Source: an uncultured bacterium
GTDB lineage: Bacteria; Patescibacteriota; Patescibacteriia; SG8-24; DYFX01
Length of the DNA: 64,000 nt
Reading direction: 5' to 3'
NCBI GenBank assembly: GCA_937900255.1
Contig: CALCDZ010000004.1
Location: forward strand, 100,413-164,412
The stretch's first letter is position 1. Each line of letters starts with the position of its first letter. The notes under the pieces were generated by a model. That model was not told where the DNA came from. It did not search any database and saw only the letters and a program-made list of their open reading frames with translations. The translations under genes were made by a program, and so were the position numbers. Shown here in pieces: positions 3,733-39,239 of this stretch.

Positions 3733-3894
3733 GCCTCCATTCTACCGGCCGGCAGCCGCATGCGGAAGTGCACCCGAAACACCGGTCGGATCGTATGGGA
3801 TAATGGGCGCCGTCTTCATCGAGTTGACAATGGCCCATTTTGAAAATAAGCTTTAAGAGCAATAAGTCGCTATCCATCGAGGAAACAGGAAGAT

Positions 3895-24170: not shown

Positions 24171-24281
24171 TTTCCGCCGCCCGTGCTATCCTGTACCTGC
24201 AAACACAAAGCTCTCGGCGAAGGCTTCGGCCCCCGCCTCCAAGCCGCAATTTGCGGATTATTCACGCTCACGCACGAACGT

Positions 24282-24479
24282 ATGAACGGCATCATCAAGC
24301 GCTTGACCGATCGCGGGTTCGGCTTCATCACCCCGGAAGACAACTCCAAGGACGTCTTCTTCCACTCCGAGGCCCTCGTCGACGTCGCTTTCGACTCGCT
24401 GAAGGTCGACCAGAAGGTCACCTTCGAGGTCGAGGATTCCGAAAAGGGTCCCCGCGCCGTCAACGTCCGCCTCGCCTAA
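24282..24479 (+). CDS. cspA: Cold-shock protein (CspA family)
   Basis: MNGIIKRLTDRGFGFITPEDNSKDVFFH with RNP1/RNP2 motifs. Internal ATG of ORF 24183..24479. Confidence 0.9.
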   Translation: MNGIIKRLTDRGFGFITPEDNSKDVFFHSEALVDVAFDSLKVDQKVTFEVEDSEKGPRAVNVRLA

Positions 24480-24495
24480 CGGCGAGCGGCGACGG

Positions 24496-24526
24496 AAAAA
24501 GCCCGCCTACGGCGGGTTTTTTCGTA
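24496..24526 (+). terminator. Intrinsic terminator (GCCCGCC-TAC-GGCGGGC followed by TTTTTTCG)
   Basis: Perfect hairpin plus T-tract 17 nt after the cspA stop. Confidence 0.65.
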
Positions 24527-24607: not shown

Positions 24608-25549
24608 ATGTCGACCAAGCGATGTCCGCACATCGGGCTCGCCGCGGCTTTCTTCGCGGTCCTGCTCTCCGTTTCCGGAGGCCGCAGCGCGATCGCCGCC
24701 GTGCCTTCCGCGACTTCTACGCCCTCGAGTCCGAGCGACGCGCTCTGCCCATCCGGCGCGCGGTACGATTTTCCGACCAAGCGCTGCAAGTGCACGGCCG
24801 GTTTCATCACGGTCGATGCCCGATGCCTGCCGGGCGCGACCGGCTGCATCAGCGAACACGGTCCCTATTCCCGCTACGACGACGCGAAGCAGGCCTGCAC
24901 CTGCCTGCCTGGCTACGCCTGGAACGCCAAGAAGACCGAGTGCATCGATCGGACCATCGCGTGCCGCGCCCAGCTCGGGGAGGACGCCTATTACGACATC
25001 CCGGCCTCCTCCTGCGTCTGCGGAGCGGGGTCCGTTTACGACACCGTCCTGCTGCGGTGCGTCACCGGGACGCTCTGGTGCGTCTCACGTTATGGCAGCC
25101 TCGCGACGTACGATGCGCTCATGCGCCAATGCGCCTGCATGCCGGGGCATCTCTTCGACCCTTCGAGGAACGGCTGCGTCGAGGACCTGCCGGTCCCGCC
25201 TTCGACCGACGCGGACGCCCAACCGGCGACCGGCACGGCTGACCTTCCCGACTCGCCGCCTCGACCGGAGAAGCAGGTGACGCCCATCTGTCCGCCCGGC
25301 ACGGCGCTCGGACTGGGCAAGAAGCGCTGCATCGCGATTCCCGAGCATTCGCACGCCGCGATCGGCAGCAAGACCGAGCTTTGGCGATGCGATGACGGGT
25401 ATGAGGAATCGGGCGAGGCCTGTCTTCTTCAGGCGTCGACATCCGTGCCGGAGACCCCTCCGGTTCCCGTCGCGCCGTCCATTCCGTCACGACAGGAAAA
25501 GAAGACCTGGTTCCAGGCCTTGGTCGGATGGTTCAAGGCGCTCTTTTGA
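24608..25549 (+). CDS. Secreted Cys-rich repeat protein (four C-x-C-x2-G-[FY] modules)
   Basis: Signal peptide. Four about 45-aa repeats (KRCKCTAGFITVDARC; KQACTCLPGYAWNAKKTEC; ASSCVCGAGSVYDTVLLRC; MRQCACMPGHLFDPSRNGC). Pro-rich linker. Confidence 0.6.
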   Translation: MSTKRCPHIGLAAAFFAVLLSVSGGRSAIAAVPSATSTPSSPSDALCPSGARYDFPTKRCKCTAGFITVDARCLPGATGCISEHGPYSRYDDAKQACTCLPGYAWNAKKTECIDRTIACRAQLGEDAYYDIPASSCVCGAGSVYDTVLLRCVTGTLWCVSRYGSLATYDALMRQCACMPGHLFDPSRNGCVEDLPVPPSTDADAQPATGTADLPDSPPRPEKQVTPICPPGTALGLGKKRCIAIPEHSHAAIGSKTELWRCDDGYEESGEACLLQASTSVPETPPVPVAPSIPSRQEKKTWFQALVGWFKALF

Positions 25550-26576: not shown

Positions 26577-26606
26577 AAAAAAGCCCATATAAATGGGCTT
26601 TTTTCT
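26577..26606 (+). terminator. Intrinsic terminator (AAAAAAGCCCAT-ATAA-ATGGGCTTTTTT)
   Basis: Perfect 12-bp palindromic hairpin plus T6, immediately before the island's left direct repeat. Confidence 0.65.
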
Positions 26607-26616
26607 GGTGGAGATG
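26606..26616. repeat. Left direct repeat (candidate attL) TGGTGGAGATG, identical to the 3'-terminal 11 nt of the tmRNA-like gene
   Basis: Exact 11-mer shared with 37228..37238, with a further CG two bases on. Lies at the GC-content transition. Confidence 0.5.
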
Positions 26617-26834
26617 CCGCCGGAAAGTTGGAACTCCCTCCTGGACTATGTGAGGAAGTGGTATCTGGTCATCAAATCCCTAGATCCAAGACGCGTCAGG
26701 GCTCGTCAGCGGCCTTCCATGGGGCGGGAGTCGTGCGCTGCTCCAAGCCATCCTTCAGGAAGGCCAGAAATACCTTCGGAAATGCCCATTTTTTAGGGCT
26801 TGCCGTTCTTGCTGGACTGTACGATAATCTGGCC

Positions 26835-29800
26835 ATGATGAGACTGATTACCGCCACCCATATCAAGAACTGGGCGGAAAACGATGAGCGGCGCTGCCAG
26901 GACACCCTGCCGCTTCTCCTTCGTCGTTTGATATGGGCCACGACGGGAAGCCCCCCGAAAGACCTCCACTTCCCAACCGGAGATAGCGTCGTGCTCGGAG
27001 GGTGGGACGGTCGCCTCGAAACCCCCGTAGTTTTCCCGTACTTCCCCGATGGCATCTCCCGCTGGGAAATCGGCACGGGCGCCTCTCCCGGCGTAAAAGC
27101 GGAGCAGGATTTCGCCAAGCGTAGTAAGGATCCGCACGGAGCAAACCCCCAAGAGACGACCTTCGTCTTCGTGACCCCTCGGCCTTGGCCGGAGCACGCC
27201 GACTGGGTGAAGGCGAAGAAGGATCTGAAAATCTGGAAAGACGTCCGCGTCGTCAACGCGGACGCGCTCGAGGCGTGGCTCGCGCTCGCCCCGGTCGTCG
27301 CCCTGTGGCTTTCGCGAGAACTTGGGTTGACGCCCACCCCGGGCATGCGCGATATCGAACGGACATGGGAAGAGTTCGCCTTATCGTCAGTCGAGCCGCT
27401 CACCACCGAGCTGGTGATCGCTGGTCGTAAGGCGGAGGTCGAAGCGGTGCACGGATGGCTCAGACACACGGCCGACGTCCATGCAGTCCGTGGCGACTCT
27501 ACGGACGAGGCGTCCGCCTTTTTGTACTCAGCGATTGACGCCCTTCCTGGAGATGACCGCGAGAAGGAACTCTCGCGGTGCATCGTCGTGGATGGCCTGC
27601 AGCAGTTCCGCGATTGCGCGGAAGCTTTTGAGAAAACTCCCCTCATCATTGTCGTGCCGAACGATTGCCGTCCCGCAGTTGGTTGGGCGGTGAGGAAAGG
27701 TCATCACGTTTTCTTGTGCGTGGAACCGCAGGCGATCGGTGGCGCAGGGGATGTGAGACTGTCGCGGCCGCGTCGGGGCGTCGTTGAAGAAGCTTTGAAA
27801 AAAATGGGCTTGTCGGATGACAAGGCTCAAAAGTTTACTCGAGATTTCGGCCATAGCATCCCCGTCCTGCGACGGCACCTCTCTCGATCCAATGCTGTAA
27901 GCGCTCCGGCTTGGGCAAGCGCTGATTCGGCGCAGGCACTTTTGCCAATCTTGCTTGCTGGCGCATGGACTGAAGAAAAGGAAGGCGACCAGGAAGTGAT
28001 TCAAATGCTTTCCGGGTCAACCCACGAGGAATATACCAAGGTGCTGAGTGGTTTTTTGCAGATCGAGGATTCCCCGATTCGCAAAGTTGGGAAAGTCTGG
28101 ACGCTTAAGGCTCCTCTGGATGCCTGGTTTCTTCTTGCTGGTCAACTTACGGACGCCTCATTGAAATCGCTGGGGCAAGTCGTTCACGCTGTTCTTACAC
28201 AGACCGATCCGAAATATGACCTACCCGCAGACAAGCGTTGGTCTGCGGCCATATACGGAAAGTCCAACCGCTATTCCGAATGGATTCGCACAGGCCTCGT
28301 TGAATCCCTGGTTCTTCTTGCTGTGCACGGTGAGCGCGCTTCTCAGGCTGCTGCGCCGCAGGCTTTTGCTAATACGGTAGTTAAAGACGTATTGGAATCA
28401 GCTAAAAAATGGGAGATGTGGGCGTCCTTGAATGACGTTCTCCCGCTCATTGCCGAAGCTGCACCAGACGCATTCCTTGATGCAATCGAGAAAAACGTAA
28501 AAGAGAACCCAGTTCTCTTCGAAGAGTTGATGCAGGACGATGCCAGCATGTTTGGTGAGTGCAAGCACGCGGGGCTGCTGTGGGGTCTTGAATCTCTTGC
28601 ATGGAGTACGACCTACTTCAGTCGAGCCGCGCAAGCCCTCATGAGTCTCGGCAAAATCGATAAGGGTGGACGCTTTGCAAATCGACCAATGAATAGCCTG
28701 GGAGAAGTGTTTCTGCCAGGTCTTCCACAGACCCACGCTTCTCCCAAGGATCGTTTGGCAGTTTTTGATGTACTCGTCGGAAAAGACCACCAAAGCGTTT
28801 GGGGGTTCAGTAAAAATTATTTTAATGGCGGAGCCATCAGCGAATCCCATAGGTTTCGATGGCGAGCTTCGGGTGGTGATCGACGTGGCTTGGAATCCGA
28901 AGACGCAAGGGACTACAAGGAATACATGGAAGGGCTTCTTCCGAGGCTTAGTAGTTTGGCGTCCTTGCGTGAAAATATTGTGTCATCGCACGAAAACTTT
29001 CTTCACCTTTCGCCCAGCATAAAGGATCGGCTCATCACCACGTTGCTCGAAATGGCCCCGGATACATTCTCAAAAACCGAAAGAGAACAGCTGCTTCAAA
29101 ATGTTCGGAACACTTTGAATTGGATCAACAGTTATGGAGAGGGGAAGGATAGGCAATACGTAGAAGGGCTCAGTAAAATCTTAACGATTTTTGAGCCCAA
29201 AGAGACGCTTGAACGGGTGGGCTGGCTTTTAGAGACACCATGGCCCACCCTTCCACAGGGTGAAACACGCAGCTATGAAGAGAAACAAGCAGAAGTAAAA
29301 GCGGCGCAGCTGGCGGCGGCGCGCGAAATCCTGGATCAAGTGCCGCTTAAGAATATCCTAGAGTACGCAAACGCTCTCCAGCACGTCGGCATTTTTGGAT
29401 TCTCTCTCGGGTGTGCGATTCGTGACGCCAAAGAAGATGAAGTTGTCCTTGAAGGTATTCTTAAGAATGCTGATCATAACTCCGGTCTTGTTAAAGGGTA
29501 TGCACTTGGCAGGGTTGAAAAGTTGGGAGCTGAATGGGTGGATCAACAAATAGTGCGCTTGCAAGCACTTGGAGGCTATTCAGATGAAGACTACGCCTTG
29601 TTGTATTTTGGGCTTCCCGAAGGGGCGGAAACATGGGTCGCGGTAAGCGCTTCTGGCAAGGGCGTTGAAGACGCGTACTGGAAACAAGCCCGAGGCTTCT
29701 CTCGAACTGATAAGACGGAAGACGCCGAGCTCGCCGTTGAAAAGCTGCTCGATGCCAAACGTCCTTTGGTTGCTCTTGATGTTGCTGGCGATCCGAAGCT

Positions 29801-30635
29801 TTCGATTTCAAGTCAGCTACTCAAAAGACTCATACAGGAAATCCTCGCAATCGATCCAGAGGATGAGAAGGTTAGATTTGATACGATGGCGAGTTTTCAT
29901 CTCGCACATGTATTCAACCAGCTATACAAACAAGGAGAACTCTCCCTTGAAGAGATCGCGATGCTGGAGTGGCCCTTCGCCGCACTTTTGGACGACATTC
30001 AAAGACACAGCTCTGTACCCACGGCTATTCATAGGTTACTGCAGAAAGAGCCAAAGTTTTTTGCGCAGCTCGTTTCGTTTGCATACAAGCGAGACGATTT
30101 TACTCCTGATCCGGGCCGCGAAGGACTCGACGAAAAGAAAGCACAGAACATGGCTCGGAATGCTCATGAGGTATTGAGGTCATGGCGTCTGTTCCCAGGT
30201 CTCAAGGATGATGGCTCACTCGATGAAAAGGACTTAAGGAGTTGGGTTGATCAAGCCAGACAACTGTGCGCCGCGACAAAATATGTAAAGGGTGGGGATC
30301 TGCAGATTGCGGAAATGTTTGCGTACGCACCGAGCGATCTCGATGGGACTTGGCCCCATGTTGCCGTTCGGAACATTATTGAAGATCTGAACAACGAACT
30401 GATTAATAAACACATTCAGACCGGCGTATACAATAGTCGGGGCGTCGTTTCTCGTAGCATGAATGATGGGGGTGCTCAAGAGAGAAAACTGGCACAAAAA
30501 TACCGTGATATGAGCGAAGCCGTGAACGCTAAGTGGCCGCGCACGGGTGCGTTGCTTCGTTCGATCGCGGAAGCCTACGAGCAACAGGCGAAACACGAAG
30601 ACGTCACAGTTGAACTGTACGATCTGCGCTTCTGA
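26835..30635 (+). CDS. Large protein of unknown function (1266 aa from ATG 26835; the ORF opens at 26628). Mostly alpha-helical. No Walker A/P-loop or other recognisable catalytic motif found by eye.
   Basis: Single uninterrupted ORF across the GC gradient. N-terminal about 150 aa globular domain (MMRLITATHIKNWAEN...LPLLLRRLIW...FPDGISRWEIGTG). Long helical body. Translationally linked (12-nt gap) to the downstream genes. Confidence 0.55.
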   Translation: MMRLITATHIKNWAENDERRCQDTLPLLLRRLIWATTGSPPKDLHFPTGDSVVLGGWDGRLETPVVFPYFPDGISRWEIGTGASPGVKAEQDFAKRSKDPHGANPQETTFVFVTPRPWPEHADWVKAKKDLKIWKDVRVVNADALEAWLALAPVVALWLSRELGLTPTPGMRDIERTWEEFALSSVEPLTTELVIAGRKAEVEAVHGWLRHTADVHAVRGDSTDEASAFLYSAIDALPGDDREKELSRCIVVDGLQQFRDCAEAFEKTPLIIVVPNDCRPAVGWAVRKGHHVFLCVEPQAIGGAGDVRLSRPRRGVVEEALKKMGLSDDKAQKFTRDFGHSIPVLRRHLSRSNAVSAPAWASADSAQALLPILLAGAWTEEKEGDQEVIQMLSGSTHEEYTKVLSGFLQIEDSPIRKVGKVWTLKAPLDAWFLLAGQLTDASLKSLGQVVHAVLTQTDPKYDLPADKRWSAAIYGKSNRYSEWIRTGLVESLVLLAVHGERASQAAAPQAFANTVVKDVLESAKKWEMWASLNDVLPLIAEAAPDAFLDAIEKNVKENPVLFEELMQDDASMFGECKHAGLLWGLESLAWSTTYFSRAAQALMSLGKIDKGGRFANRPMNSLGEVFLPGLPQTHASPKDRLAVFDVLVGKDHQSVWGFSKNYFNGGAISESHRFRWRASGGDRRGLESEDARDYKEYMEGLLPRLSSLASLRENIVSSHENFLHLSPSIKDRLITTLLEMAPDTFSKTEREQLLQNVRNTLNWINSYGEGKDRQYVEGLSKILTIFEPKETLERVGWLLETPWPTLPQGETRSYEEKQAEVKAAQLAAAREILDQVPLKNILEYANALQHVGIFGFSLGCAIRDAKEDEVVLEGILKNADHNSGLVKGYALGRVEKLGAEWVDQQIVRLQALGGYSDEDYALLYFGLPEGAETWVAVSASGKGVEDAYWKQARGFSRTDKTEDAELAVEKLLDAKRPLVALDVAGDPKLSISSQLLKRLIQEILAIDPEDEKVRFDTMASFHLAHVFNQLYKQGELSLEEIAMLEWPFAALLDDIQRHSSVPTAIHRLLQKEPKFFAQLVSFAYKRDDFTPDPGREGLDEKKAQNMARNAHEVLRSWRLFPGLKDDGSLDEKDLRSWVDQARQLCAATKYVKGGDLQIAEMFAYAPSDLDGTWPHVAVRNIIEDLNNELINKHIQTGVYNSRGVVSRSMNDGGAQERKLAQKYRDMSEAVNAKWPRTGALLRSIAEAYEQQAKHEDVTVELYDLRF

Positions 30636-30647
30636 TGCTTCTGATTC

Positions 30648-31004
30648 ATGAAACCTGCAAGCGCCATTCTTATCGGCTTGGCATCAGCTCTTACGGGGTA
30701 TTTTATTTGGGCTCTTCATAAGAGAACTAAGGAGTTGGTGTACGGGTTTGTTAAAGCGCTTTTTGTCCCCATCATTCTGGTACTGGTTGTATTTGCTTAC
30801 GGAGAAACGGCAGGATGGGGATGGCTGGAAAAGGTTGGCTGGGCTATTGGGTATACCGTTGCCGGTATTATCGGGGCGATAGTGATTATGATTGTGGGAG
30901 GGGTGATTTTAATTAATTTGAGAGAGCGTTGGGAAATGAGAGCTGCATTTGTCGAGAAAGAAGAAGGAGAGAAGGAGCGCCCTAGCGAAGTTTCACATGG
31001 ATAG
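30648..31004 (+). CDS. Small membrane protein (118 aa, 3 TM helices, charged C-terminal tail)
   Basis: Hydrophobic segments ILIGLASALTGYFIWAL, FVPIILVLVVFAY, AGIIGAIVIMIVGGVILI. 12 nt after the large gene. Its stop overlaps the next start. Confidence 0.5.
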   Translation: MKPASAILIGLASALTGYFIWALHKRTKELVYGFVKALFVPIILVLVVFAYGETAGWGWLEKVGWAIGYTVAGIIGAIVIMIVGGVILINLRERWEMRAAFVEKEEGEKERPSEVSHG

Positions 31005-32082
31005 AAATAAGAGTATTTTCCTTGCGTTCGTTGGCCAACCAATTGAGCAGGTCGATGCAATATTTGAGATACAAAACGGTTATGAATGTTGGGACTTAAA
31101 ACAATTCAAACGTGATGAGTTTATTGAAGCACTAAAGAAAAAAATAACACCCATTAATGACAATGTATTAAAGTTTTATAGTGCGGAGACAGCATCGCAC
31201 GATTCTTTCGGTATCACAGAAGAACAATATGGAGAATGCTCCTGGGGATTACTGATCCCTGAGGGTCGTGAAGATGTATATTCGGCCGCGTACGCTGAAA
31301 CGATATTTTTATTGAACCTTTATTCACCCACGTTCCTTCGTCCTATTTTCTACGGCTCCGAAATGGGCATTCACCCTATAGCACACGATCAGCCCACTTT
31401 TTTCTTTGCCCATTTTCAGAACCAGTCGCACATTTTCAAGACGAAAGGTTTTGTCACCTTTTTCAAAACACTGCTCCCTCAATCCCAATATGGGACTTGG
31501 CAGCTAGACCGTATACAAAAGTGGGGAAAAGAAGATTGGAGACTTTTTGTTGCGGGCTGGCTCTATTCGGGACTCAAGGACTACGAAAATAGTAAAAACT
31601 CTTTCGGGTGGCAAAGAGAATCTGCTGACATGGCTGCCATATTGGAGGCACTGTTTACAGCAGGTGATTCACAAAACGAGGAAGTGGGTTATAGATTAAG
31701 AAAAAGGATGGCCGCCCTCCTTTCCTGGATATTTCCAGAAATAGAAAAAGAAGTAAAAGATTTGTACACTCAGCGAAGCGCGTTTGTTCACGGATCTTTT
31801 TTTGCACAAATCGAGAAAGACACTAGACATAGCTACAATAACTTACCGTCCCCCGATTTCAATTTGTTGTATAAACAAAAGGAGCATGTGCGGCTGGCTT
31901 TGATTTCTTATCTGCACCTCGCCAGACTTCTCAATGAGAAACCTCTTGAGTATGAAGGCAACACGACGGTGATTAACGCTCTTGAAGAGGCAGTTATCAA
32001 TGTTGCGTTGCGAGATAAGCTGACTAGTGAGGTTCGCAATCTGTTTTCAATGATGCCGACCCCATATTTTAAAATGTTTTAA
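30997..32082 (+). CDS. Hypothetical 361-aa protein with a HEPN-like R-x4-H-G motif (putative Abi/HEPN-type RNase effector)
   Basis: Motif KDLYTQRSAFVHGSFF matches the HEPN R-[polar]-x3-H-G signature in the C-terminal helical region. AT-rich (about 38% GC). In-frame ATG overlapping the upstream stop by 8 nt. Confidence 0.4.
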   Translation: MDRNKSIFLAFVGQPIEQVDAIFEIQNGYECWDLKQFKRDEFIEALKKKITPINDNVLKFYSAETASHDSFGITEEQYGECSWGLLIPEGREDVYSAAYAETIFLLNLYSPTFLRPIFYGSEMGIHPIAHDQPTFFFAHFQNQSHIFKTKGFVTFFKTLLPQSQYGTWQLDRIQKWGKEDWRLFVAGWLYSGLKDYENSKNSFGWQRESADMAAILEALFTAGDSQNEEVGYRLRKRMAALLSWIFPEIEKEVKDLYTQRSAFVHGSFFAQIEKDTRHSYNNLPSPDFNLLYKQKEHVRLALISYLHLARLLNEKPLEYEGNTTVINALEEAVINVALRDKLTSEVRNLFSMMPTPYFKMF

Positions 32083-32374
32083 GTCGACGAAGTGAGCGAT
32101 ACGGGTGTGGATAAACATCCAAAATGTTATTGATTGTTATCTGATGTTATAAATATTTCTTCCAAAGAAAGTCTTGCATCATTTTTGTAAGTTGCTAAAC
32201 TGTCGATGACAGTTGAGTTCGTCGAGAAAAGACGACCTCGGAAAAATGAGCAACTGCCGTAGTATTGTATCCATTTTCTGTGACGTATCGGGTCTGCCCC
32301 GCTGCTTCATAGAAAGTGTTTAGCGATCTACTGGCAGTAGTCCATCGCAAAGCCCAAGGCTTTGACGAGTGAGA

Positions 32375-32403
32375 AGTCGCCAGTCCACTGGCGACTTTTT
32401 TTC
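32375..32403 (+). terminator. Intrinsic terminator-like hairpin (AGTCGCCAG-TCCA-CTGGCGACT followed by T8)
   Basis: Perfect 9-bp stem and T8 in the 480-bp noncoding stretch downstream of the cargo operon. Could also be the 3' end of a small RNA. Confidence 0.45.
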
Positions 32404-32560
32404 GTGCAATGCTATCAGTCAAAAGATGCAGAGAACTTTTGGGAGAAAAGGGGTCTGACCTGACGGATGAGCAGGTGGCCACTCTTTGTGACTCATTGTA
32501 CGACATCGTGAATCTGATTTTCAACCGCCTTCAAAAAAGTAGTTAGGAACCACAGATACT

Positions 32561-32812
32561 ATGAAAATGAAACCGTTCCCAACGCCGCACTTCAGCTGCT
32601 CTGACCTCTATCTCGCTGCCTATCTTATCGCAAAAGGGCTGAGGCTTGTTGATGTGGACAAGGCTGACAGTAAGCGAGCTGTTTTCGTATTTTCTGATGT
32701 GGTGGGCAGAGAGGATACGGTCGCATCCTTTTGGTCAAAGGAGGCCCGCATAGAGCCGCGCGCCTTTATTGCTGCGATCAAGGAAGCCAAAGAACGACTT
32801 TACAGCGACTAG
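32561..32812 (+). CDS. DUF5659-domain protein
   Basis: 83 aa. FSCSDLYLAAYLIAKGLRLVDV...AVFVFSDV...ASFWSKEARIEPRAFIAAIKEAKERLYSD matches the DUF5659 pattern as recalled from memory. Confidence 0.55.
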   Translation: MKMKPFPTPHFSCSDLYLAAYLIAKGLRLVDVDKADSKRAVFVFSDVVGREDTVASFWSKEARIEPRAFIAAIKEAKERLYSD

Positions 32813-32827
32813 CGCTGTAAAAAGTGA

Positions 32828-33802
32828 ATGAATATGAGAAATCAGATCAAGTTTAAGGGCTTTCTCAAATCCTATCGATTGAAGCTGAAGAGGACGATGG
32901 ACCTCTCCGATGCCGAATATCGTCTTTTTGATGTACTTATTCACATTGTCGATTGGGATAAAGATCACGAGACTTTTGGCACGACAAGTGAATCGTTACG
33001 AGATATTAAGGAGCATTATTTGCCGCACCACGCCATCGGTAAACTTTCTGAAACCATTACGAGCCTAGCCAAACGAGATTTTCTGAAAAGACTGCGTGAC
33101 AGGATCGAGGTCAACAACTTCAAATGGCTTATTAGTAAAAGTGTTCAGGATGGTGAACGATTTAATGGCCTCGTTGATGAACCAACTGTTCACCATGATG
33201 AACGACTTGTTCAGGTTACAGAACAGAAAATTCAGCCCGGCGAACACGATGTTCATGCTTCCGAACACGGTGATAAAAAAGGCGTCGGCGAAGCACGCCA
33301 CGTAATGCCTATGAACATTGGAGAAAATGAGGTGACTGTTCACCCTGATGAAACTCAAAAAACCTCTAAAGAACATTTAGAGAAACTGAAAGAACATCAG
33401 ACAAACGAAGAAAATCTGCTGATGATTCAAAAACTGAAGAACGAATACGGTCCGGACATCGAAGTGCCGATCCGGAACTTCTCTTTGTTGCTCGTCCGAG
33501 ACGCCGCTCGTCGCATGGAAGCGCGCATTCGCCGTGGCGAGCCAGTAAAGAATCGTGTCGGCTACATTACGAAACTTTGCAAAGAAGGGATCGCATGGGA
33601 CTTAAGCGAAGAAAAAGCTGATGAGGACCGTGCTGGGGCGCGGGCTGTTGCACAAGAAGAGGAGCAGAGAAAATTGATGGAGGAGCACGATCGGCCCATG
33701 ACGCCCGAAGAGAAGGCTCGTCGAGAGGAGACCCTCAGGTCTTTTAGGGAGATGCGCAACAAGATTGGGCGCAACAACGCCCCCCCGCCTCAAAATAGAT
33801 AG
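32828..33802 (+). CDS. Hypothetical protein with an N-terminal winged-helix-like domain and a Glu/Lys/Arg-rich C-terminus (possible replication initiator or DNA-binding protein of the element)
   Basis: LSDAEYRLFDVLIHIVDW...LAKRDFLKRL (wHTH-like). Charged low-complexity tail. Positioned between DUF5659 and the iteron-like region. Confidence 0.4.
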   Translation: MNMRNQIKFKGFLKSYRLKLKRTMDLSDAEYRLFDVLIHIVDWDKDHETFGTTSESLRDIKEHYLPHHAIGKLSETITSLAKRDFLKRLRDRIEVNNFKWLISKSVQDGERFNGLVDEPTVHHDERLVQVTEQKIQPGEHDVHASEHGDKKGVGEARHVMPMNIGENEVTVHPDETQKTSKEHLEKLKEHQTNEENLLMIQKLKNEYGPDIEVPIRNFSLLLVRDAARRMEARIRRGEPVKNRVGYITKLCKEGIAWDLSEEKADEDRAGARAVAQEEEQRKLMEEHDRPMTPEEKARREETLRSFREMRNKIGRNNAPPPQNR

Positions 33803-33854
33803 CAAAAGGTTTCTTGGGAAAAATCAAATTTGAAGAGGGTGTCCCAGCGCAGAT

Positions 33855-34186
33855 CATTAAATCGCCAAAGACAACTCCCACCACCCCTTTCCCAATCCTT
33901 ACATACGGGGCGATGAAGATGAGGTGTCACCCCGTATGGCGAGGTGCTATCGCCTGTTATGCCGGATATACATTTGTTGAGGTGCGGTGCATCTAACCAG
34001 TGAGCACTCTTGGCAAAACAAAAAATGCCCCGACAGGCACCAACGTCATTAAATAGCCATTTCATTTAGTCCGTGTGGAGCAAATGCGCACATCTAACGA
34101 CATTTGAATCATATCAGACGAGCCCGCCGCGTCAAGAGAGGGCATCAACTCACATTTGCTTCATCCTACAGCATTAAATGGCTATT
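33855..34186. promoter_or_regulatory. AT-rich noncoding region with three CATTAAAT[CAG]GC repeats, including the inverted pair AAATAGCCATTT / AAATGGCTATT. Candidate binding sites or origin for the element
   Basis: Copies at 33855..33866, 34047..34062 and 34172..34186. Located between the wHTH gene and the excisionase-like gene. Confidence 0.35.
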
Positions 34187-34203
34187 AATAGCATTGAACG
34201 TGT

Positions 34204-34437
34204 ATGAACCAGTCTTCAGAGGCACGAATAGGATCAACTGCGGAATCGGAAGCGCTCGGCATCAAGGCCGTAGCGCAATCCCTAGGCGTTTCCAGGGCGA
34301 CGGTCTTGCGTTGGATTCGAGCAAAGAAACTCGAAGGGTTCTTTCGCATCGGTCATAAATGGCTTATTCGGAAGTCTGACTTCGAATCATTTATCAATGG
34401 AAGAGTGGCCCAGCAATCAAGGAATGATGCCGTATGA
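34204..34437 (+). CDS. Excisionase/AlpA-family helix-turn-helix DNA-binding protein (HTH_17)
   Basis: VSRATVLRWIRAKKLEGFFRIGHKWLIRKSDFESFI is the excisionase-family HTH signature. Upstream of the recombinases. Confidence 0.7.
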   Translation: MNQSSEARIGSTAESEALGIKAVAQSLGVSRATVLRWIRAKKLEGFFRIGHKWLIRKSDFESFINGRVAQQSRNDAV

Positions 34438-34823
34438 AATATCTCGCAATCATCTTTATTGTCTTTTGGATCCTTGTCGCAACGTCCATGCTTCGGGATG
34501 AGCACAAGGAATCAAAGAGTAAAGGGAAAAGAGTGAATATATTTCAGAAAGCGTCAACGCTGTTATTGTTGCTCATTGGTTCATTAGTACTTACAGCTTT
34601 CGGACTTGGCCTCGTTGGTGGCCTCGTGTTTTTCATTCCTTCATCCATTCGCTATTTACTCACCGCACATTCCGGCTACCAGCTGTTTATTGGGTTGGGG
34701 GGACTGGCTATTTCAATTCTCCTTCTGAACATCTGTAGGCCACTTTGGGAAATGCTTATCGATCGCCTGCGTGCAGCTGCCAACTTCATTCGGAAATTAA
34801 GCGCACACAAATGGAAACTCTAA
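34434..34823 (+). CDS. Small membrane protein (129 aa, 3 TM), hypothetical
   Basis: Hydrophobic ORF overlapping the excisionase stop (ATGA) and the integrase start. Confidence 0.4.
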   Translation: MKYLAIIFIVFWILVATSMLRDEHKESKSKGKRVNIFQKASTLLLLLIGSLVLTAFGLGLVGGLVFFIPSSIRYLLTAHSGYQLFIGLGGLAISILLLNICRPLWEMLIDRLRAAANFIRKLSAHKWKL

Positions 34824-35698
34824 TAAATCAATACCTGGACTACCTCATCGTAGAGCGGAACTTTTCGCCACGCACAGTTGAGGCATACGAACATGATCTT
34901 GGTAAGTTTACGGGATTCCTACAGGCCAACGGTCGTTCAGACGTGCTTGCCGTGACACAGGAAGATGTAAGTCATTTTCTTTCTGAATGTGCCGACACAA
35001 ACAGCGCCGTTACGTTGACGCGCAAGCTATTTGCCATCCGCTCCCTGTTCAAATATCTGTTGCGTAAAAAATTGATCGTGGTTAACCCCACGAGCGAAAT
35101 CGAGAAAATGAAGCTTCCTCAGAAGCAGCCTGCCTACCTTACGGAATCTGAGTATCGAAATCTGATTGAAACAGTGAAAAGAGAAGCGGCCCCCTATGAT
35201 CGATTACGTGATATCGCCATCGTCCTTCTCTTGCTCGGCACCGGCATACGCCTTTCAGAACTCGTGGGGCTCACTCTCGACAGGGTTAGTTTGGAGAAGA
35301 CCGGCAGGAGCATCAAGGTAAGGGGTAAGGGTGATAAAGAACGAACCATCCCCCTAATGGGCGAGGTCGTATCTGTTCTCGAAACGTACTTGAAACACCG
35401 CCCCAAGGTCACCAGCGACCACTTGTTCATTAGTCGGCGTGGCGACACGCTACATCCGCGTAGTGTCTACGGTCTTGTAAAAAAATATCTTCAAAAATCA
35501 GATATACAAAAAACCAAGGCGGCTGTTCATTCGTTGCGCCACACTTTTGGAACTTCGTTGATGAACAACGGAGTTAATATCGTGGTCATCCAGGAACTTC
35601 TTGGACACAAGAAGCTGGAGACTACGCGGCGCTATCTGCACATCAACAACATTGATTTGCGTAACGCCGTCGATTCATTGGTCTTGAGCAAACCTTGA
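34811..35698 (+). CDS. Tyrosine recombinase/integrase (XerC/XerD-like)
   Basis: N-terminal SAM-like domain (YLDYLIVERNFSPRTVEAYEHDL). Catalytic residues R (GTGIRLSEL), K, HSLRHTFGT, R, and Y in LGHKKLETTRRYLH. Confidence 0.85.
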   Translation: METLINQYLDYLIVERNFSPRTVEAYEHDLGKFTGFLQANGRSDVLAVTQEDVSHFLSECADTNSAVTLTRKLFAIRSLFKYLLRKKLIVVNPTSEIEKMKLPQKQPAYLTESEYRNLIETVKREAAPYDRLRDIAIVLLLLGTGIRLSELVGLTLDRVSLEKTGRSIKVRGKGDKERTIPLMGEVVSVLETYLKHRPKVTSDHLFISRRGDTLHPRSVYGLVKKYLQKSDIQKTKAAVHSLRHTFGTSLMNNGVNIVVIQELLGHKKLETTRRYLHINNIDLRNAVDSLVLSKP

Positions 35699-35699
35699 T

Positions 35700-37427
35700 A
35701 TGGCAGCTGACACGAAAGATGGGAAACTGATCGCGCTGATCTACGCCCGCGTTTCGACCATCCAGCAGGATTCTGAGAGCCAGGAACATCGGTGCAGACA
35801 ACGTGCGGATCAGAGTGGTTACGTTGTCGAGGAGGTATTTCCCGACAAGTTCACAGGCGGCGGCGATTTTTGGAAGCGCCCACAACTGAAAAGGCTTTTG
35901 AATCACATCGACAGGAATCCGCATAAAAAATATGTGGTCATTTTTGACGACCTCAAGAGGTTTGCGAGAGACACCGAGTTTCATATCAGGCTAAGGAACG
36001 AGTTTAAAAGCAGGGGCACGAAAGTTGAGTGTTTAAACTTCAATTTTGAGGATTCTCCTGAAGGTGAGTTTGTCGAGACCATGTTTGCGGCACAGGGCCA
36101 GCTTGAGCGTCAGCAGAACAGGAGACAGGTCATTCAGAAAATGAAAGCGAGGCTAGAACGCGGTTACTGGACTTTCGACGTGCCGCCAGGTTTGAAATAC
36201 ATTAATGATCCCGTGCATGGGAAAATCCTTGTCGCGGACGAACCCAAGGCCAGTATCATCCGTAAAGCTCTGGAGGGCTTTGCAGATAATACCTTTCCTA
36301 ACAGGGTTGATGTTCAAGCCTTTCTGGAGAGCCGGGGTTTTCTCCATCGTGAGAGGCACAAGTACGTGGGTCTTGAGCAGGTGAACCGGATTCTCAAAAG
36401 AGTCCTATACTCTCCATGCATCGAATATCCACACTGGGGTATTTCGAGGCGTAAGGGTCACCACCAAGCATTAATCAGCCTTGAGACCTTCGAGAAGATC
36501 CAGGAGAAGCTCAAGGGTACGGCTAAGGGATTGGCCAGAAAGGATTTGAACCTAGATTTTCCGGCCAGGGGATTCGTGGTTTGTTCGGGTTGCAGCAAGC
36601 CACTTACGTCCAGCTGGACGACCAAGCACAAGGGTCGTGAGGGTTACAGGAAGGCCTACTACCGCTGTCACAGGGCAGGGTGCCCCGAAAGGAACAGGGG
36701 CATCCCCAAAGAGGCGCTGGAGGGCAATCTGGGTGGGATTCTGGGCCAGGTGGGGGCTACGGAGGAAGTCTTGGCTCTGACTAAAGAAGTGGCCCTTGAT
36801 GCCTGGAACGAGCGCCATGCCTACTCCAAGGAGTCGGACGGTCAAAGGCTCATTGAGATCGCAAAGTTGGAATCAGAAATCAACATCTATCTTGAACGGA
36901 TTACCAAGACCAACACCGAGGCCGTCATTGGCGCATACGAAAAGAAGATCACGGAGCTGACGAACAAGAAACTGCTCTTGGAGGAAAAATCTAGCGGCGA
37001 CAATCAAGACACCGGCATTAACTTTGAAACCGCACTTGAGACCGTGTTTGAGTACATCAAAAACCCATACGCGATATGGACGAACGGGATTTTTGAAGAC
37101 AAGCGTTTGGTGCTCAGGATGATCTTCACTGGGCCGCTCACCTATAACAGAAAAACCGGCTTTGAAACTACCGGTTTTTCTCTGCCCACAATGCTTTTTC
37201 GGCATTCTGGGGCTTCGGATTTCGGTTTGGTGGAGATGGCGGGATTCGCACCCGCGTCTGGGGCATGTGGGACGGCGCGCACTACAGGCGTAGGCGACTC
37301 GGGTTTCCTGCGCCCGGAGGCGCGGGACGGAGCGCGGACTCGGAGTCGCCGAGATGCCCGCGTCCGTGACCTCGATCCAACCGTATCGCGCGCCTCGAGA
37401 CAGGACGCGCGGCGGATTTCCTTATGA
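35700..37427 (+). CDS. Large serine recombinase (resolvase catalytic domain, recombinase domain and Zn-ribbon). The last roughly 65 codons run antisense through the tmRNA 3' end and may not be native.
   Basis: N-terminal ALIYARVSTIQQDSESQ (Ser nucleophile). Cys cluster CSGCSKPL...CHRAGC. Starts 1 nt after the tyrosine recombinase stop. Confidence 0.8.
   Translation: MAADTKDGKLIALIYARVSTIQQDSESQEHRCRQRADQSGYVVEEVFPDKFTGGGDFWKRPQLKRLLNHIDRNPHKKYVVIFDDLKRFARDTEFHIRLRNEFKSRGTKVECLNFNFEDSPEGEFVETMFAAQGQLERQQNRRQVIQKMKARLERGYWTFDVPPGLKYINDPVHGKILVADEPKASIIRKALEGFADNTFPNRVDVQAFLESRGFLHRERHKYVGLEQVNRILKRVLYSPCIEYPHWGISRRKGHHQALISLETFEKIQEKLKGTAKGLARKDLNLDFPARGFVVCSGCSKPLTSSWTTKHKGREGYRKAYYRCHRAGCPERNRGIPKEALEGNLGGILGQVGATEEVLALTKEVALDAWNERHAYSKESDGQRLIEIAKLESEINIYLERITKTNTEAVIGAYEKKITELTNKKLLLEEKSSGDNQDTGINFETALETVFEYIKNPYAIWTNGIFEDKRLVLRMIFTGPLTYNRKTGFETTGFSLPTMLFRHSGASDFGLVEMAGFAPASGACGTARTTGVGDSGFLRPEARDGARTRSRRDARVRDLDPTVSRASRQDARRISL
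37228..37238. repeat. Right direct repeat (candidate attR) TGGTGGAGATG, the 3' terminus (CATCTCCACCA) of the tmRNA-like gene
   Basis: Exact match to 26606..26616. The island's low-GC DNA ends here. Confidence 0.5.
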
Positions 37428-37640
37428 CACCGCGATCCGACTAGGAGATATCGTCGGGCGATGGGTCAGTCGCGCTTAGGCGAGGACCGGAGCGAAGGAC
37501 GGAGCGAACGCGTTGGCGAACGCCGTCTTCACTTTTGCGAGAACGTTGGCACGTAGTCGTTTGCCTTTTTATTCATGACGGGAAGGCTCCGTCAACCTGC
37601 GCGAGCCGGTCACGCGCTCCATCGAGTCTATTCATCCCCG
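37228..37640 (-). ncRNA. ssrA: tmRNA (ssrA), one-piece, about 413 nt
   Basis: Minus-strand RNA begins GGGGATG-AATA-GACTCGATGGAG (acceptor and D-like region, cf. E. coli GGGGCUG-AUUCUG-GAUUCGACGGG). Contains UAAAAAGGCAAACGAC (cf. E. coli UAGUCGCAAACGAC at the resume codon). Ends with T-arm GCGGG-TGCGAAT-CCCGC and CATCTCCACCA, giving a G3:U70 Ala-type acceptor. Lies directly downstream of smpB on the same strand. Confidence 0.6.
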
Positions 37641-37681: not shown

Positions 37682-38131
37682 TCAGCGCCGCAGCTTGAGA
37701 GCGCCGCGGATCTGCCGGTCGATGTCGCGTTTCTTGATCGATTCGCGCTTCTCGTACTGCTTCTTGCCGCGCGCGACGGCGATCTCGATCTTGATGCGGC
37801 CAGACACCATATAAGCACGGAGCGGGATGATCGTCAATCCATCCTCCTCGCGTTTTCCGCGCAGGCGTTCGAGCTGGCGCTTGTGCAGGAGCAGCTTCCG
37901 GGAGCGTTCCGGGTCGTAGTCGGGCAGGGGACCGGCCTTGGGGTAGCGGGCGATGTGCGCTCCGACCAGCATCGCTTCGCCGCGGGTGAAGGCGACGTGG
38001 GCGCCTTTCAGCTTCAGGTGCCCGGTCTTGGCGGACTTCACCTCGTGGCCGTCCAGCACCAAACCCGCCTCGAGTTTCTCGAGAAGCTCATAGTCGTAGC
38101 GGGCGCGGTCGTTTGAGGCGAGGTCGTCCAT
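37682..38131 (-). CDS. smpB: SsrA-binding protein SmpB
   Basis: 149 aa from MDDLASNDRARYDYELLEKLEAGLVLDGHEVKSAK. Conserved SmpB core. Internal ATG of ORF 37682..38248. Confidence 0.85.
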   Translation of the reverse strand: MDDLASNDRARYDYELLEKLEAGLVLDGHEVKSAKTGHLKLKGAHVAFTRGEAMLVGAHIARYPKAGPLPDYDPERSRKLLLHKRQLERLRGKREEDGLTIIPLRAYMVSGRIKIEIAVARGKKQYEKRESIKKRDIDRQIRGALKLRR

Positions 38132-38192
38132 GGCACGCCCAGTGTAGCGATTTGCGGAACAGGCGTCTACGTGGTAGATTTTACGCGAAGAT

Positions 38193-39239
38193 ATGGCGGA
38201 AACAGGCTCGGAACGCCAAGCGCAGGTCATCACCATCTCGACCCTCACGATCGTGAAGGTCGCCGTTTTCGCCTTGGCGCTCGGGTTCCTCTACTTGATC
38301 CGAGACATCATCGCGCTCCTGTTCGTCTCGCTGGTCTTGGCGTCGATCATCAATCCGCTGGCCGCCTGGTTCCAGTCCAGGAAGATGTCGCGCGGAGCGG
38401 CGGTCCTGCTCGTCTATGCGGTCATCCTGGCCGTCATCATCGCCATCGTCACCGTCCTCGTGCCGGCCGTCGTCCTTGAAGCCCGCGACCTGATCAGGAA
38501 CGCCGACGCGATCTGGGCGAATTTCCTGGCGACGCTCGGTCCGCTGCGCGACTTCGTCGCCGCTCATGGCCTGAGCGACGACCTGGAGCAGGCGCTCACC
38601 GGCGCCAATGGGCTGGGTGCCGCCGCCGGAGGATTGGTCGCCACCATCCGCGGCTTGGCGACCGGCATCGTCTCGCTGATCGTCGTCTTGGTCGTCGCCT
38701 TCTACTTGGTGGTGTCGGAAGACGCCTTGAAACGCCTGTTCCGTTCTGTCGCTCCCGAGTCGTATCAGCCGTACCTGGTCGACCTGTTCCTGCGCATCGA
38801 GAAGAGCATCGGCGGCTGGGTGCGCGGACAAATGATCCTGAGCGCGATCATCGCCGTCACCGTCTACGTGGCGCTCAAGATCCTTGGGCTCAAGTATGCG
38901 CTGGTGCTCGCGATGACCGCCGGCGTGGCCGAATCGATCACCTACGTCGGCCCGGTCTTCGCCGCCATCCCGGCCATCCTGATCGGTTTCACGCAGTCGC
39001 CGCTCAAGGGCCTGATCGTCGCCGTCATGTACGTGCTCATCCAGCAGACGGAAAGCCATATCTTGGTGCCGAAGGTCATGCAGAAGGCGACGGGCCTCCA
39101 CCCGATCGTCTGCATCTTCTCGCTGCTCATCGGCGTCAAGGTCGCCGGACTGCTGGGCGCGCTCATGGCCATTCCCGTCGCCATGATGGCCAGCATCGTG
39201 TTCGGTGACGTGTTCCGTTCCGTCAAGCCGGAACGTTGA
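38193..39239 (+). CDS. AI-2E family transporter (PerM/UPF0118)
   Basis: 348 aa, about 8 TM, conserved UPF0118 C-terminal region (QQTESHILVPKVM). Confidence 0.8.
   Translation: MAETGSERQAQVITISTLTIVKVAVFALALGFLYLIRDIIALLFVSLVLASIINPLAAWFQSRKMSRGAAVLLVYAVILAVIIAIVTVLVPAVVLEARDLIRNADAIWANFLATLGPLRDFVAAHGLSDDLEQALTGANGLGAAAGGLVATIRGLATGIVSLIVVLVVAFYLVVSEDALKRLFRSVAPESYQPYLVDLFLRIEKSIGGWVRGQMILSAIIAVTVYVALKILGLKYALVLAMTAGVAESITYVGPVFAAIPAILIGFTQSPLKGLIVAVMYVLIQQTESHILVPKVMQKATGLHPIVCIFSLLIGVKVAGLLGALMAIPVAMMASIVFGDVFRSVKPER

Follow-up and report, generated by a model that had tools for sequence, protein, structure and literature searches.

Three tightly packed genes on a tmRNA-associated island raise the question of whether they constitute a single, undescribed defence system. 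The original prediction had proposed such a module, composed of a giant sensor-like protein, a small membrane protein and a HEPN-type effector. Here, we trace the answer through the layout of the locus, the structure and spread of its genes and the neighbourhoods of their homologs. The term “window” denotes the whole stretch of DNA analysed, which comprises 64,000 nucleotides.

The three open reading frames are arranged as follows:

26835..30635, + strand, gene 1, 1266 aa (ORF and gene call), Avs-like, with predicted nuclease, degenerate STAND module and putative helical sensor
30648..31004, + strand, gene 2, 118 aa, three hydrophobic segments, without detectable homolog
30997..32082, + strand, gene 3, 361 aa, N-terminal alpha/beta domain (aa 1-130) and C-terminal HEPN domain

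The ORF list and the gene calls in ENA for the source contig, which agree with all three ORFs, reproduce the arrangement described originally, in which genes 1 and 2 are separated by a 12-nt gap and genes 2 and 3 overlap by 8 nt. The start of gene 3 also agrees with the start of its homologs. A terminator scan scored no site at either the gene 1/gene 2 or the gene 2/gene 3 junction, and genes 1 and 3 are probably co-transcribed in this island. The tight spacing and the lack of a scored terminator between the genes leave room for a local functional link.

The genes reside on an island with the following boundary and backbone features:

26577..26605, - strand, hairpin and T-run terminator, AAAAAAGCCCAT-ATAA-ATGGGCTTTTTT, directly adjoining the left att repeat
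26606..26616, no strand, left island boundary repeat (left att) TGGTGGAGATG, identical to 37228-37238
32561..32812, + strand, DUF5659 ORF, island backbone gene (Pfam mark on the source contig)
34745..35698, + strand, tyrosine recombinase (Pfam Phage_integrase, E 1.3e-39)
35700..37427, + strand, large serine recombinase (Pfam Resolvase, Recombinase and Zn_ribbon_recom)
37228..37238, no strand, right island boundary repeat TGGTGGAGATG, corresponding to the tmRNA 3' end
37228..37639, - strand, tmRNA (ssrA), integration target (Rfam RF00023, 67 bits, E 6e-24)
37682..38248, - strand, smpB, adjoining the tmRNA gene (SmpB Pfam mark)

The tmRNA at 37228..37639 was missed by ARAGORN and found by Rfam. 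A short-word blastn search with the tmRNA 3' end, rather than the general repeat search, which did not report it, revealed an 11-nt direct repeat, TGGTGGAGATG, whose reverse complement forms the 3' end of the tmRNA, CATCTCCACCA. By itself this repeat is without significance (E 0.74); it is convincing because of its position. The terminator that adjoins the left repeat is interpreted as having belonged to ssrA before insertion of the island displaced it. Together, the Rfam tmRNA, the boundary repeats, the displaced terminator and the two recombinases bear out the predicted tmRNA-integrated mobile island: positions 26617-37227 are a 10.6-kb integrative island at the 3' end of ssrA. Insertion at this site would most likely be the work of the large serine recombinase, whose ORF continues past the right boundary repeat and into the tmRNA gene. 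Two related serine-recombinase islands (L135 and L167), which also adjoin ssrA/smpB, carry gene 3 homologs, and L135 is arranged likewise. The DUF5659 family, too, is present in related serine-recombinase elements carrying gene 3 homologs. Gene 1 also matches the T-arm of the tmRNA over 17 nt (28282-28298), but this match falls into a conserved coding segment and was taken as chance.

The base composition indicates that this island is a mosaic, in which the start of gene 1 is host-like and genes 1, 2 and 3 each differ in GC. As originally noted, GC declines from 5' to 3': it steps from 0.62 in the 5' portion of gene 1 to 0.51 in its remainder, falls to 0.46 in gene 2 and further to 0.42 in gene 3, and reaches a windowed minimum of 0.38 along the operon. 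The first of these steps marks a distinct segment:

26835..27620, + strand, 5' 262 codons of gene 1, host-like GC3 (0.74 versus 0.51 downstream)

A change-point analysis separates the first ~262 codons from the rest of the gene (LLR 24.6), and the same contrast in 64 gene 1 homologs amounts to -0.001 +/- 0.04. Moreover, the N- and C-terminal segments of gene 1 order the homologs differently by identity. The 5' segment is read as recombinant; no gene 1 paralog that would account for it was found within the window.

Gene 1 had been regarded as an unclassifiable giant sensor, with about 150 globular residues followed by 1000 residues of helical repeats. An AF2 model of aa 1-560 (pLDDT 90.5, pTM 0.85) instead shows the nuclease-STAND arrangement of Avs proteins, to which a putative sensor region is appended:

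26835..27329, + strand, PD-(D/E)xK (restriction-endonuclease/Mrr-like) nuclease domain, aa 1-165, with D58, E78 and K88
27402..28199, + strand, STAND NTPase-type module, aa ~190-455, with nucleotide-binding, helical and winged-helix subdomains
27477..27521, + strand, degenerate Walker A position VHAVRGDSTDEASAF (translation and alignment of 75 family members)
28200..30632, + strand, putative helical sensor region, aa ~456-1266 (the model covers aa 456-560 only)

Helices were modelled at aa 427-557, and what the earlier description misses is the alpha/beta STAND module at aa ~190-455. Foldseek comparison of the model with the PDB yielded EcAvs4 as the best match (617 columns, E 2e-7), followed by CED-4, Apaf-1 and plant NLRs. 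Like Avs proteins, gene 1 combines an N-terminal nuclease bearing conserved catalytic residues with a modelled STAND NTPase fold. D58 and E78 are invariant in the family and K88 is conserved in at least 90%; this lysine lies on a helix ten residues past E78, and not at the classic (D/E)-x-K position. The predicted nuclease provides an effector domain within gene 1 itself, at odds with a giant sensor in need of a separate effector. We read gene 1 as a probable Avs-like (bacterial NLR-like) single-protein nuclease sensor with a putative role in defence.

The nucleotide-binding site departs from this pattern. Gene 1 lacks an intact Walker A motif, by which STAND/Avs proteins are biochemically defined: GxxxxGK[ST] is absent, as the original prediction stated, and G-D-S-T-D-E-A-S-A-F stands in its place. 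GK[ST] is missing at this site from all 75 family members compared (25-57% identity); the family-wide substitute is a short acidic loop, G-D-x-x-D-E-A-x-A-F, in which D221 and E225 are invariant. A GxxxxGKT sequence in Pseudomonas homologs falls within the nuclease domain rather than the STAND module and is coincidental. With an acidic loop in place of Walker A, the switch of gene 1 probably operates independently of nucleotide binding. KpAvs8 naturally lacks nucleotide-binding residues and, as an Avs8 homolog active against phage, provides a precedent.

The gene 1 family is large (~2,800 clusters at 50% identity), very uniform in length (~1260 aa) and distributed among CPR bacteria, Proteobacteria, Actinobacteria, Bacteroidota and Firmicutes. 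Homologs occur on 25 plasmids and in PHROG 18693, and prophages carry family members; phage records gave one partial match. At four loci (L009, L018, L020 and L025) the homolog accompanies a serine-recombinase gene adjoining a tRNA gene, and another homolog lies inside a comM-splitting island. Searches of Pfam, NCBIfam and PDB sequences returned no named family for gene 1, and PADLOC gave only a weak PD-Lambda-4_A match, in line with the expectation that HMM searches would not name the giant protein. In RefSeq the family is called “hypothetical” or, wrongly, “HTH regulator/HigA antitoxin”. Many representatives are extended at the N-terminus by 90-125 aa, and the plasmid homologs bear an N-terminal XRE/HigA-type HTH of ~96-98 aa and are labelled “helix-turn-helix transcriptional regulator” or “HigA family addiction module antitoxin”. 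These annotations arise because of the small fused HTH only, which is missing from gene 1 of the window and from most homologs.

Gene 2 shows three hydrophobic segments and a charged tail on direct reading, as described before. Among 5.8 billion proteins the search found gene 2 itself alone, and tblastn in 160 related loci gave no match. Gene 2 is therefore an ORFan, a lineage-specific small membrane ORF overlapping the start of gene 3.

For gene 3, the predicted R-x4-H-G motif and HEPN-type helical domain were both recovered:

31444..32046, + strand, HEPN-type helical domain, aa ~150-350 (model)
31774..31794, + strand, RSAFVHG motif (Rx4H, then G), R260-S-A-F-V-H265-G266 (translation)

The structure model (pLDDT 88.9) displays the helical-bundle fold of HEPN proteins, and RSAFVHG at aa 260-266 conforms to their Rx4-6H motif. 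H265 and G266 do not vary across 33 homologs, at least 90% of which keep R260. Gene 3 is a separate HEPN-domain protein, presumably an RNase acting through R260 and H265. Pfam, NCBIfam, PDB-sequence and PADLOC searches assigned it to no named family, and tblastn against plasmids found nothing. An ApeA/Apea-like HEPN was rejected, as none of the 33 members had a Pfam HEPN or PADLOC match at E <= 1. A HEPN-MNT pair was likewise discarded: the upstream gene is a three-TM ORFan and not a minimal nucleotidyltransferase, and no MNT/nucleotidyltransferase-type partner was present among the Pfam-scanned upstream neighbours of gene 3 homologs. These homologs recur beside serine recombinases, behind varying upstream genes, and the family is a frequent cargo of serine-recombinase islands.

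Whether the genes belong together was addressed by a neighbourhood survey. Among 80 gene 1 loci, including 71 with at least 1.5 kb of downstream sequence, not one harbours a gene 2 or gene 3 homolog beside the gene 1 homolog, and none of 80 gene 3 loci harbours a gene 1 or gene 2 homolog. The closest relatives, i.e., gene 3 homologs at 66-69% identity and a gene 1 homolog at 57%, also lack the partners, and no conserved neighbour of gene 1, downstream or elsewhere, emerged across its 80 loci. With gene 2 an ORFan in addition, the survey contradicts a conserved three-gene module. The general defence or abortive-infection flavour of the locus fared better, as the neighbours of homologs include ThsB-TIR, restriction-modification, Schlafen/AlbA_2 and NERD genes. 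Specifically, the closest gene 1 homolog adjoins ThsB_TIR and AAA_13 genes, the closest gene 3 homolog adjoins SLFN_AlbA_2, NERD and DUF2130 genes, and several gene 3 homologs lie near restriction-modification genes.

We therefore consider it likely that the mosaic island carries two unrelated, independently working anti-phage-type cargo genes, their defence role being suggested by architecture and neighbourhood. If gene 1 works like Avs3, Avs4, Avs7 and Avs8, its C-terminal region, the putative counterpart of the long TPR-like sensor of Avs proteins, would bind a conserved phage protein, and binding would lift autoinhibition. The STAND modules might then oligomerise and bring the nuclease domains together, which would cut DNA and thus abort the infection. 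In gene 3, the N-terminal alpha/beta domain may control the R260/H265 RNase site.

Among the alternatives, the best surviving, and still unlikely, reading holds that the gene 3-type HEPN is a constant effector or toxin cassette with an interchangeable upstream partner, here gene 2 and perhaps gene 1, such that genes 2-3 or 1-3 form a module in this island while gene 1 acts autonomously in other genomes. The 8-nt overlap of genes 2 and 3 fits this proposal, and gene 3 homologs very often directly follow a same-strand gene with an overlap of a few bases: a ~700-aa protein in seven metagenome loci (plus L167), a ~460-aa protein with an RHKNSH motif in five loci, an unannotated protein of ~160-260 aa in four loci, and in other cases a 999-aa RelA_SpoT protein or a DUF3644 protein. 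However, in ~10 loci only a serine recombinase lies directly upstream, the partners show no detectable mutual similarity, none is a known HEPN antitoxin (MNT), and the ORF lists of the loci include spurious ORFs. A profile comparison of the ~700-aa partner family with the gene 1 family (probability 0.3%) also dismissed this partner as a cut-down gene 1.

Two bolder and quite improbable readings take the gene 3-type HEPN as a plug-in effector to any upstream large sensor, and the gene 1 family as a nucleotide-independent NLR-type switch. On the first, the island would have coupled its Avs-like sensor with an additional effector directed against RNA, the sensors being gene 1 and the membrane ORF here and the ~700-aa, ~460-aa or RelA/SpoT-type proteins elsewhere. 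On the second, the invariant acidic loop (D221/E225) would take the place of the P-loop in thousands of family members.

Very unlikely, in turn, is the obligate three-component system, in which gene 1 would be the giant sensor, gene 2 a transducer or executor in the membrane and gene 3 the HEPN effector. The shared strand, the 12-nt gap, the 8-nt overlap, the junctions free of terminator-like sites and the common island speak for it. Against it stand the missing co-occurrence in 80 gene 1 and 80 gene 3 loci and in the nearest relatives of either gene (66-69% for gene 3, 57% for gene 1), the absence of a gene 2 homolog anywhere searched, the nuclease effector of gene 1 itself and the unequal GC across the genes (0.51, 0.46 and 0.42). 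Least probable of all is that gene 1 is a mobile-element maintenance or regulatory protein, for example a transcription regulator or addiction-module component, with the STAND-like module as a dead scaffold, a view that draws on the XRE/HigA-type HTH and annotation of plasmid homologs, the 90-125-aa extension and the family-wide degenerate P-loop, yet conflicts with the lack of an HTH in gene 1 of the window and most homologs (the annotations stem from the HTH alone), the conserved D/E/K nuclease residues and Avs4-like nuclease-STAND arrangement over ~560 aa, the defence genes in the neighbourhoods and the precedent of the active anti-phage Avs8 homolog devoid of nucleotide-binding residues.

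While the proposed new three-gene system is not upheld, the gene 1 and gene 3 families are still useful. The very large gene 1 family, unnamed in Pfam, NCBIfam and PADLOC 2023, is now readable as a putative Avs/NLR-like nuclease sensor, and the absence of the Walker A lysine throughout the family offers a natural test case for STAND switching without nucleotide exchange, a question already raised by one Avs8 homolog. The gene 3 family is a HEPN clade that lacked annotation and moves with serine recombinases whose targets are tRNA and tmRNA genes.

Among known systems, gene 3 is to be viewed against the HEPN superfamily members HEPN-MNT toxins, AbiV, Csm6/Csx1, Las1 and ApeA. For gene 1, the first comparison is with Upx, which joins a PD-(D/E)xK nuclease to a large sensor and senses terminase. 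Both are large single-protein nuclease-sensors that are widespread across phyla; Upx was rejected, as its nuclease is C-terminal and it lacks a STAND module, whereas the gene 1 nuclease is N-terminal and accompanied by a STAND fold.

Avs8A (PD-lambda-4), an Mrr nuclease-STAND protein of ~1283 aa that senses the HK97-fold major capsid protein, nearly equals gene 1 in length and architecture. PD-Lambda-4_A is also the sole PADLOC defence model with a sequence match, albeit weak, to the gene 1 family: 16 of 32 members match weakly over ~110 aa (best E 1.4e-6), gene 1 of the window with E 1.8e-4 over 115 aa. Here, aa 534-648 are collinear with profile positions 556-663, a region just past the Avs8A NTPase module. 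Among seven distant family members six gave no match and the seventh E 3.7e-4, and the PADLOC PD-Lambda-4_B model (Avs8B) matched neither gene 2 nor gene 3. Membership in Avs8/PD-lambda-4 was rejected, since the match is short, weak and essentially absent in distant members and an Avs8B partner is lacking; the gene 1 family is separate from Avs8 and at most a remote relative. KpAvs8 and gene 1 both lack nucleotide-binding residues. The NB-ARC modules of eukaryotic and plant NLRs, Apaf-1 and CED-4, in contrast, use ATP/ADP exchange, whereas gene 1 has a short, lysine-free acidic loop at the P-loop position.

Avs4 and Avs3 differ from gene 1 in that the latter has no significant sequence match to the PADLOC Avs models, a Walker A degenerate throughout its family and a very uniform length of ~1260 aa. 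In the modelled aa 1-560, gene 1 nevertheless resembles these proteins (EcAvs4, 8DGF) in the succession of an N-terminal PD-(D/E)xK nuclease and STAND subdomains, and like them it is a single large, horizontally mobile protein with a long C-terminal region.

Three open reading frames lie in tandem on the plus strand of the window and were originally predicted to form a defence operon consisting of a giant sensor, a three-TM protein and a HEPN effector. The gene calls of the source contig (ENA ERZ650241; also the NCBI contig of 275,627 bases) yield the same three ORFs, with a gap of 12 nt between gene 1 and gene 2 and an overlap of 8 nt between gene 2 and gene 3, in exact agreement with the prediction.

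26835..30635, plus strand: gene 1, ORF of 1266 aa, identical contig gene call
30648..31004, plus strand: gene 2, ORF of 118 aa, identical contig gene call
30997..32082, plus strand: gene 3, ORF of 361 aa, identical contig gene call
35700-37427, plus strand: large serine recombinase, frame crossing the right island boundary into ssrA

GC content declines from 5' to 3' along the trio, as had also been noticed: the 5' end of gene 1 has 0.60-0.65, the remaining part of gene 1 about 0.50, gene 2 0.46 and gene 3 0.42. The host flanks have 0.63-0.64. A promoter-like element (TTGCCG-17-GATAAT, 26800-26828, plus strand) ends 7 nt 5' of the gene 1 ATG, and a Shine-Dalgarno sequence is absent at this start; the mRNA of gene 1 may thus be leaderless or nearly so when translated.

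The genes reside in a mobile-element context. A full-length tmRNA gene (ssrA; 37228..37639, minus strand) adjoining smpB is scored by Rfam (67 bits, E 6e-24), although ARAGORN reported no tmRNA in the window; the Rfam alignment is poor in the coding/pseudoknot region (accuracy 0.71) and contains a long insertion 3' of the tag region. The 3'-terminal 11 bases of the tmRNA, CATCTCCACCA (plus strand TGGTGGAGATG, 37228-37238), recur in direct orientation at 26606-26616, where this left copy abuts a strong hairpin-plus-T-run terminator (26577-26605) and the composition shifts. The 11-mer by itself is not significant (E 0.74); since the repeat is located at the exact tmRNA 3' end and is accompanied by an apparently displaced ssrA terminator, the stretch 26617-37227 is consistent with an insert of about 10.6 kb next to the tmRNA, in line with the island originally proposed. 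The island comprises the whole of gene 1, gene 2 and gene 3, a DUF5659 ORF, two unannotated ORFs, a tyrosine recombinase and the large serine recombinase. The ORF of the latter extends about 200 nt beyond the boundary, antisense to ssrA, and hence its last ~65 residues are encoded by host DNA. Similar elements bearing a gene 3 homolog are found on two other contigs: in L135 a 43%-identical serine recombinase (2275-3810) reads into the tmRNA (3785-4209), and in L167 the order is smpB, serine recombinase, a 709-aa gene and the gene 3 homolog. Outside the island, a sub-threshold match to the cspA thermoregulator (24249-24525, plus strand; 29 bits, gathering score 78; E 2.8e-4) covers part of a cold-shock-domain gene called on the source contig and the sequence just 3' of it. 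About 1 kb from the island, 24608-25549 (plus strand) encodes an apparently secreted, cysteine-rich protein of 313 aa with repeated C-x-C and weak, EGF/TIL-like Pfam matches.

The neighbourhoods of homologs argue against an undescribed three-gene system. Using tblastn with all island proteins, homologs of gene 2 or gene 3 were found in none of 80 genomic loci harbouring gene 1 homologs, which stem from many phyla and extend at least 1.5 kb downstream in 71 cases. Likewise, gene 1 or gene 2 homologs were detected by tblastn in none of 80 metagenomic loci encoding gene 3 homologs. The trio is also absent around the closest available relatives, i.e., gene 3 homologs at 66-69% identity and a gene 1 homolog at 57%. 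Clustering of the neighbours of gene 1 homologs revealed no conserved partner; large serine recombinases were commonest, in 6-7 loci, ahead of DNA methyltransferases in 5 and tyrosine recombinases in 3. Gene 2 matched only itself among 5.8 billion proteins. Given the lack of co-occurrence and of gene 2 homologs, the trio represents a local juxtaposition rather than a conserved module, and the three gene families are independent of one another. A local coupling of gene 2 and gene 3 through their overlap is possible. Overall, the sequence observations of the original prediction are confirmed and its defence flavour and HEPN assignment are supported, but the three-gene system is not.

Gene 3 shares a nearly invariant RSxFVHG motif, as well as WQRES and YRLRKR motifs, with 33 homologs. 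An AlphaFold2 model (pLDDT 88.9, pTM 0.89) predicts an alpha/beta domain in aa 1-130 followed by a helical one in aa 150-350, with moderate scores in fold comparison; the modelled helical domain and the conserved motif support a HEPN protein. None of 33 family members matches a Pfam or PADLOC model, even at E <= 1, and one member bears the JGI label “Apea-like HEPN”. A serine recombinase is located within 4 kb of the gene 3 homolog in 21 of the 80 loci, and directly upstream in about 10 of these. Other homologs are positioned tightly behind varying genes. In seven loci the preceding gene encodes a ~700-aa protein and overlaps by 4 nt, in five it encodes a ~460-aa protein bearing an RHKNSH motif and in four an unannotated protein of ~160-260 aa; elsewhere a RelA_SpoT protein of 999 aa or a DUF3644 protein takes this place. 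The surroundings also include restriction-modification genes as well as Schlafen/AlbA_2 and NERD proteins. The ~700-aa family, which lacks a Pfam match, is joined to a gene 3 homolog by a 4-nt overlap in at least eight loci (L089, L092, L093, L094, L097, L102, L146, L167), and this pair may constitute a genuine two-gene module. Profile comparison (probability 0.3%) indicates that the family is unrelated to gene 1. In L168 (4633-6981) and L169 (1-4177), gene 3 homologs lie in serine-recombinase elements whose backbone resembles that of a phage satellite. These elements encode DUF5659, shared with the island of the window, as well as HTH_36, an excisionase-like MerR/HTH_17 protein and a protein weakly matching Terminase_2 (small terminase-like).

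Gene 1 matches no model in Pfam or NCBIfam, and its sole PADLOC match is weak (PD-Lambda-4_A, E 1.8e-4, aa 534-648 versus profile positions 556-663 of 1283). From 73 sequences, AlphaFold2 produced a confident model of aa 1-560 (pLDDT 90.5, pTM 0.85). Its best Foldseek match in the PDB, over 617 aligned columns (E 2e-7), is the structure of EcAvs4, an antiviral STAND (Avs) protein, bound to a phage portal (8dgf_A), followed by an AVAST5 filament, Apaf-1 and Dark. Based on this model and match, gene 1 has an Avs architecture of a nuclease effector, a STAND module and a long C-terminal region, which is helical over the modelled part (aa 427-557). At the putative nuclease site, D58 and E78 do not vary, and K88, whose spacing departs from the classic (D/E)-x-K, is conserved to at least 90%; the putative catalytic residues are conserved, as in gene 3. 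The Walker A position following strand beta-1 (VHAVR, aa 215-219) reads G-D-S-T-D-E-A-S-A-F. As originally noted for gene 1 itself, a P-loop is missing, and this holds family-wide: GK[ST] occurs at this position in none of 75 members (25-57% identity), the loop stays acidic in all of them, and in the closer homologs (41-57% identity) D221 and E225 do not vary. A G-T-N-G-A-G-K-T string, of Walker A pattern, in gammaproteobacterial, mostly Pseudomonas, homologs (L047, L051, L052, L053, L057, L067; about aa 75-134) was rejected as STAND Walker A, as it sits in a nuclease-domain loop before K88 and is probably coincidental.

The 5' part of gene 1 stands out in composition. GC3 steps at about codon 262 from 0.74 upstream to 0.51 downstream (log-likelihood ratio 24.6), and in 64 homologs the GC3 of the first 870 nt minus that of the remaining sequence has a mean of -0.001 +/- 0.04 (maximum 0.12). 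Identity rankings of homologs are uncorrelated between the N-terminal 290 aa and the C-terminal part (rho 0.05) and correlated between the middle and the C-terminal part (rho 0.62). Long host ORFs outside the island reach a GC3 of about 0.75-0.89; the window contains no gene 1 paralog. The GC3 step, the discordant rankings and the host GC3 together suggest a recombinant N-terminal segment, such that the nuclease and the first half of the nucleotide-binding subdomain appear to derive from a GC-rich allele.

When 1.84 billion cluster representatives were searched exhaustively for gene 1 homologs with phmmer, 2,813 clusters matched at E <= 1e-30 and a total of 6,453 matched at E <= 1e-3. The gene 1 family corresponds to PHROG 18693 (E 6e-180, full length), where no function is assigned. 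Most of the 150 matches listed comprise 1,250-1,270 aa, and a subset of these matches carries an N-terminal extension of 90-125 residues. In plasmid homologs (25 records from Rhizobium, Shewanella, Cupriavidus and others) the extension is an XRE/HigA-type HTH, e.g., about 96-98 aa fused to proteins of 1350-1370 aa in L164 (5713-9777) and L165 (152-4264). Because of this extension, the whole protein is listed in RefSeq either as “helix-turn-helix transcriptional regulator” or as “HigA family addiction module antitoxin”, an annotation that is very likely misleading. Four loci with gene 1 homologs (L009, L018, L020, L025) feature a serine-recombinase gene next to a tRNA gene, and on an Aminicenantes chromosome (L002/L019, 7073-15567) the homolog lies in an island splitting comM. 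There, an 80-aa Mg_chelatase fragment and a 506-aa Mg_chelatase gene flank the homolog together with two HTH genes; no recombinase is visible, and the insertion falls within the comM integration hotspot or next to it. The LOOT RNA motif (RF03000; 85 and 78 bits) occurs directly beside gene 1 homologs in unrelated loci of Saccharibacteria and Pseudomonadales (L010 3546-3666 and L020 14118-14232, both minus strand). The closest gene 1 homolog adjoins ThsB-TIR and AAA_13 genes. By guilt by association, this setting follows the pattern of a mobile, stand-alone defence-type gene, and the defence genes near homologs (ThsB-TIR, restriction-modification) support the predicted defence flavour.

By analogy with Avs3, Avs4, Avs7 and Avs8, the C-terminal region of gene 1 would bind a conserved phage protein, which would trigger STAND-mediated oligomerisation, here probably without nucleotide exchange, and thereby activate the nuclease. 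Gene 3, a predicted RNase, would cause growth arrest once its N-terminal domain senses a signal. PD-lambda-4 is now named Avs8, and Avs8A combines an Mrr nuclease with STAND and senses HK97-fold major capsid proteins (bioRxiv 10.1101/2025.07.02.662641). The Avs8A model PD-Lambda-4_A is weakly matched by 16 of 32 gene 1 family members (best E 1.4e-6); six of seven distant members do not match it, and one does at E 3.7e-4. Membership in Avs8 was rejected on account of these weak and, in distant members, mostly absent matches, and the gene 1 family may at most be a remote relative. A 2026 census counts at least 90 defence-associated STAND families, and the gene 1 family may be among them. A precedent for the missing P-loop is KpAvs8, the Avs8 homolog of Klebsiella, in which the nucleotide-binding residues are naturally absent (Nature 2026, PMC13581612 / bioRxiv 10.64898/2026.01.04.697583). 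Gene 1 matches no curated model; judged by analogy, it would act like an Avs protein minus one defining feature, the Walker A motif.
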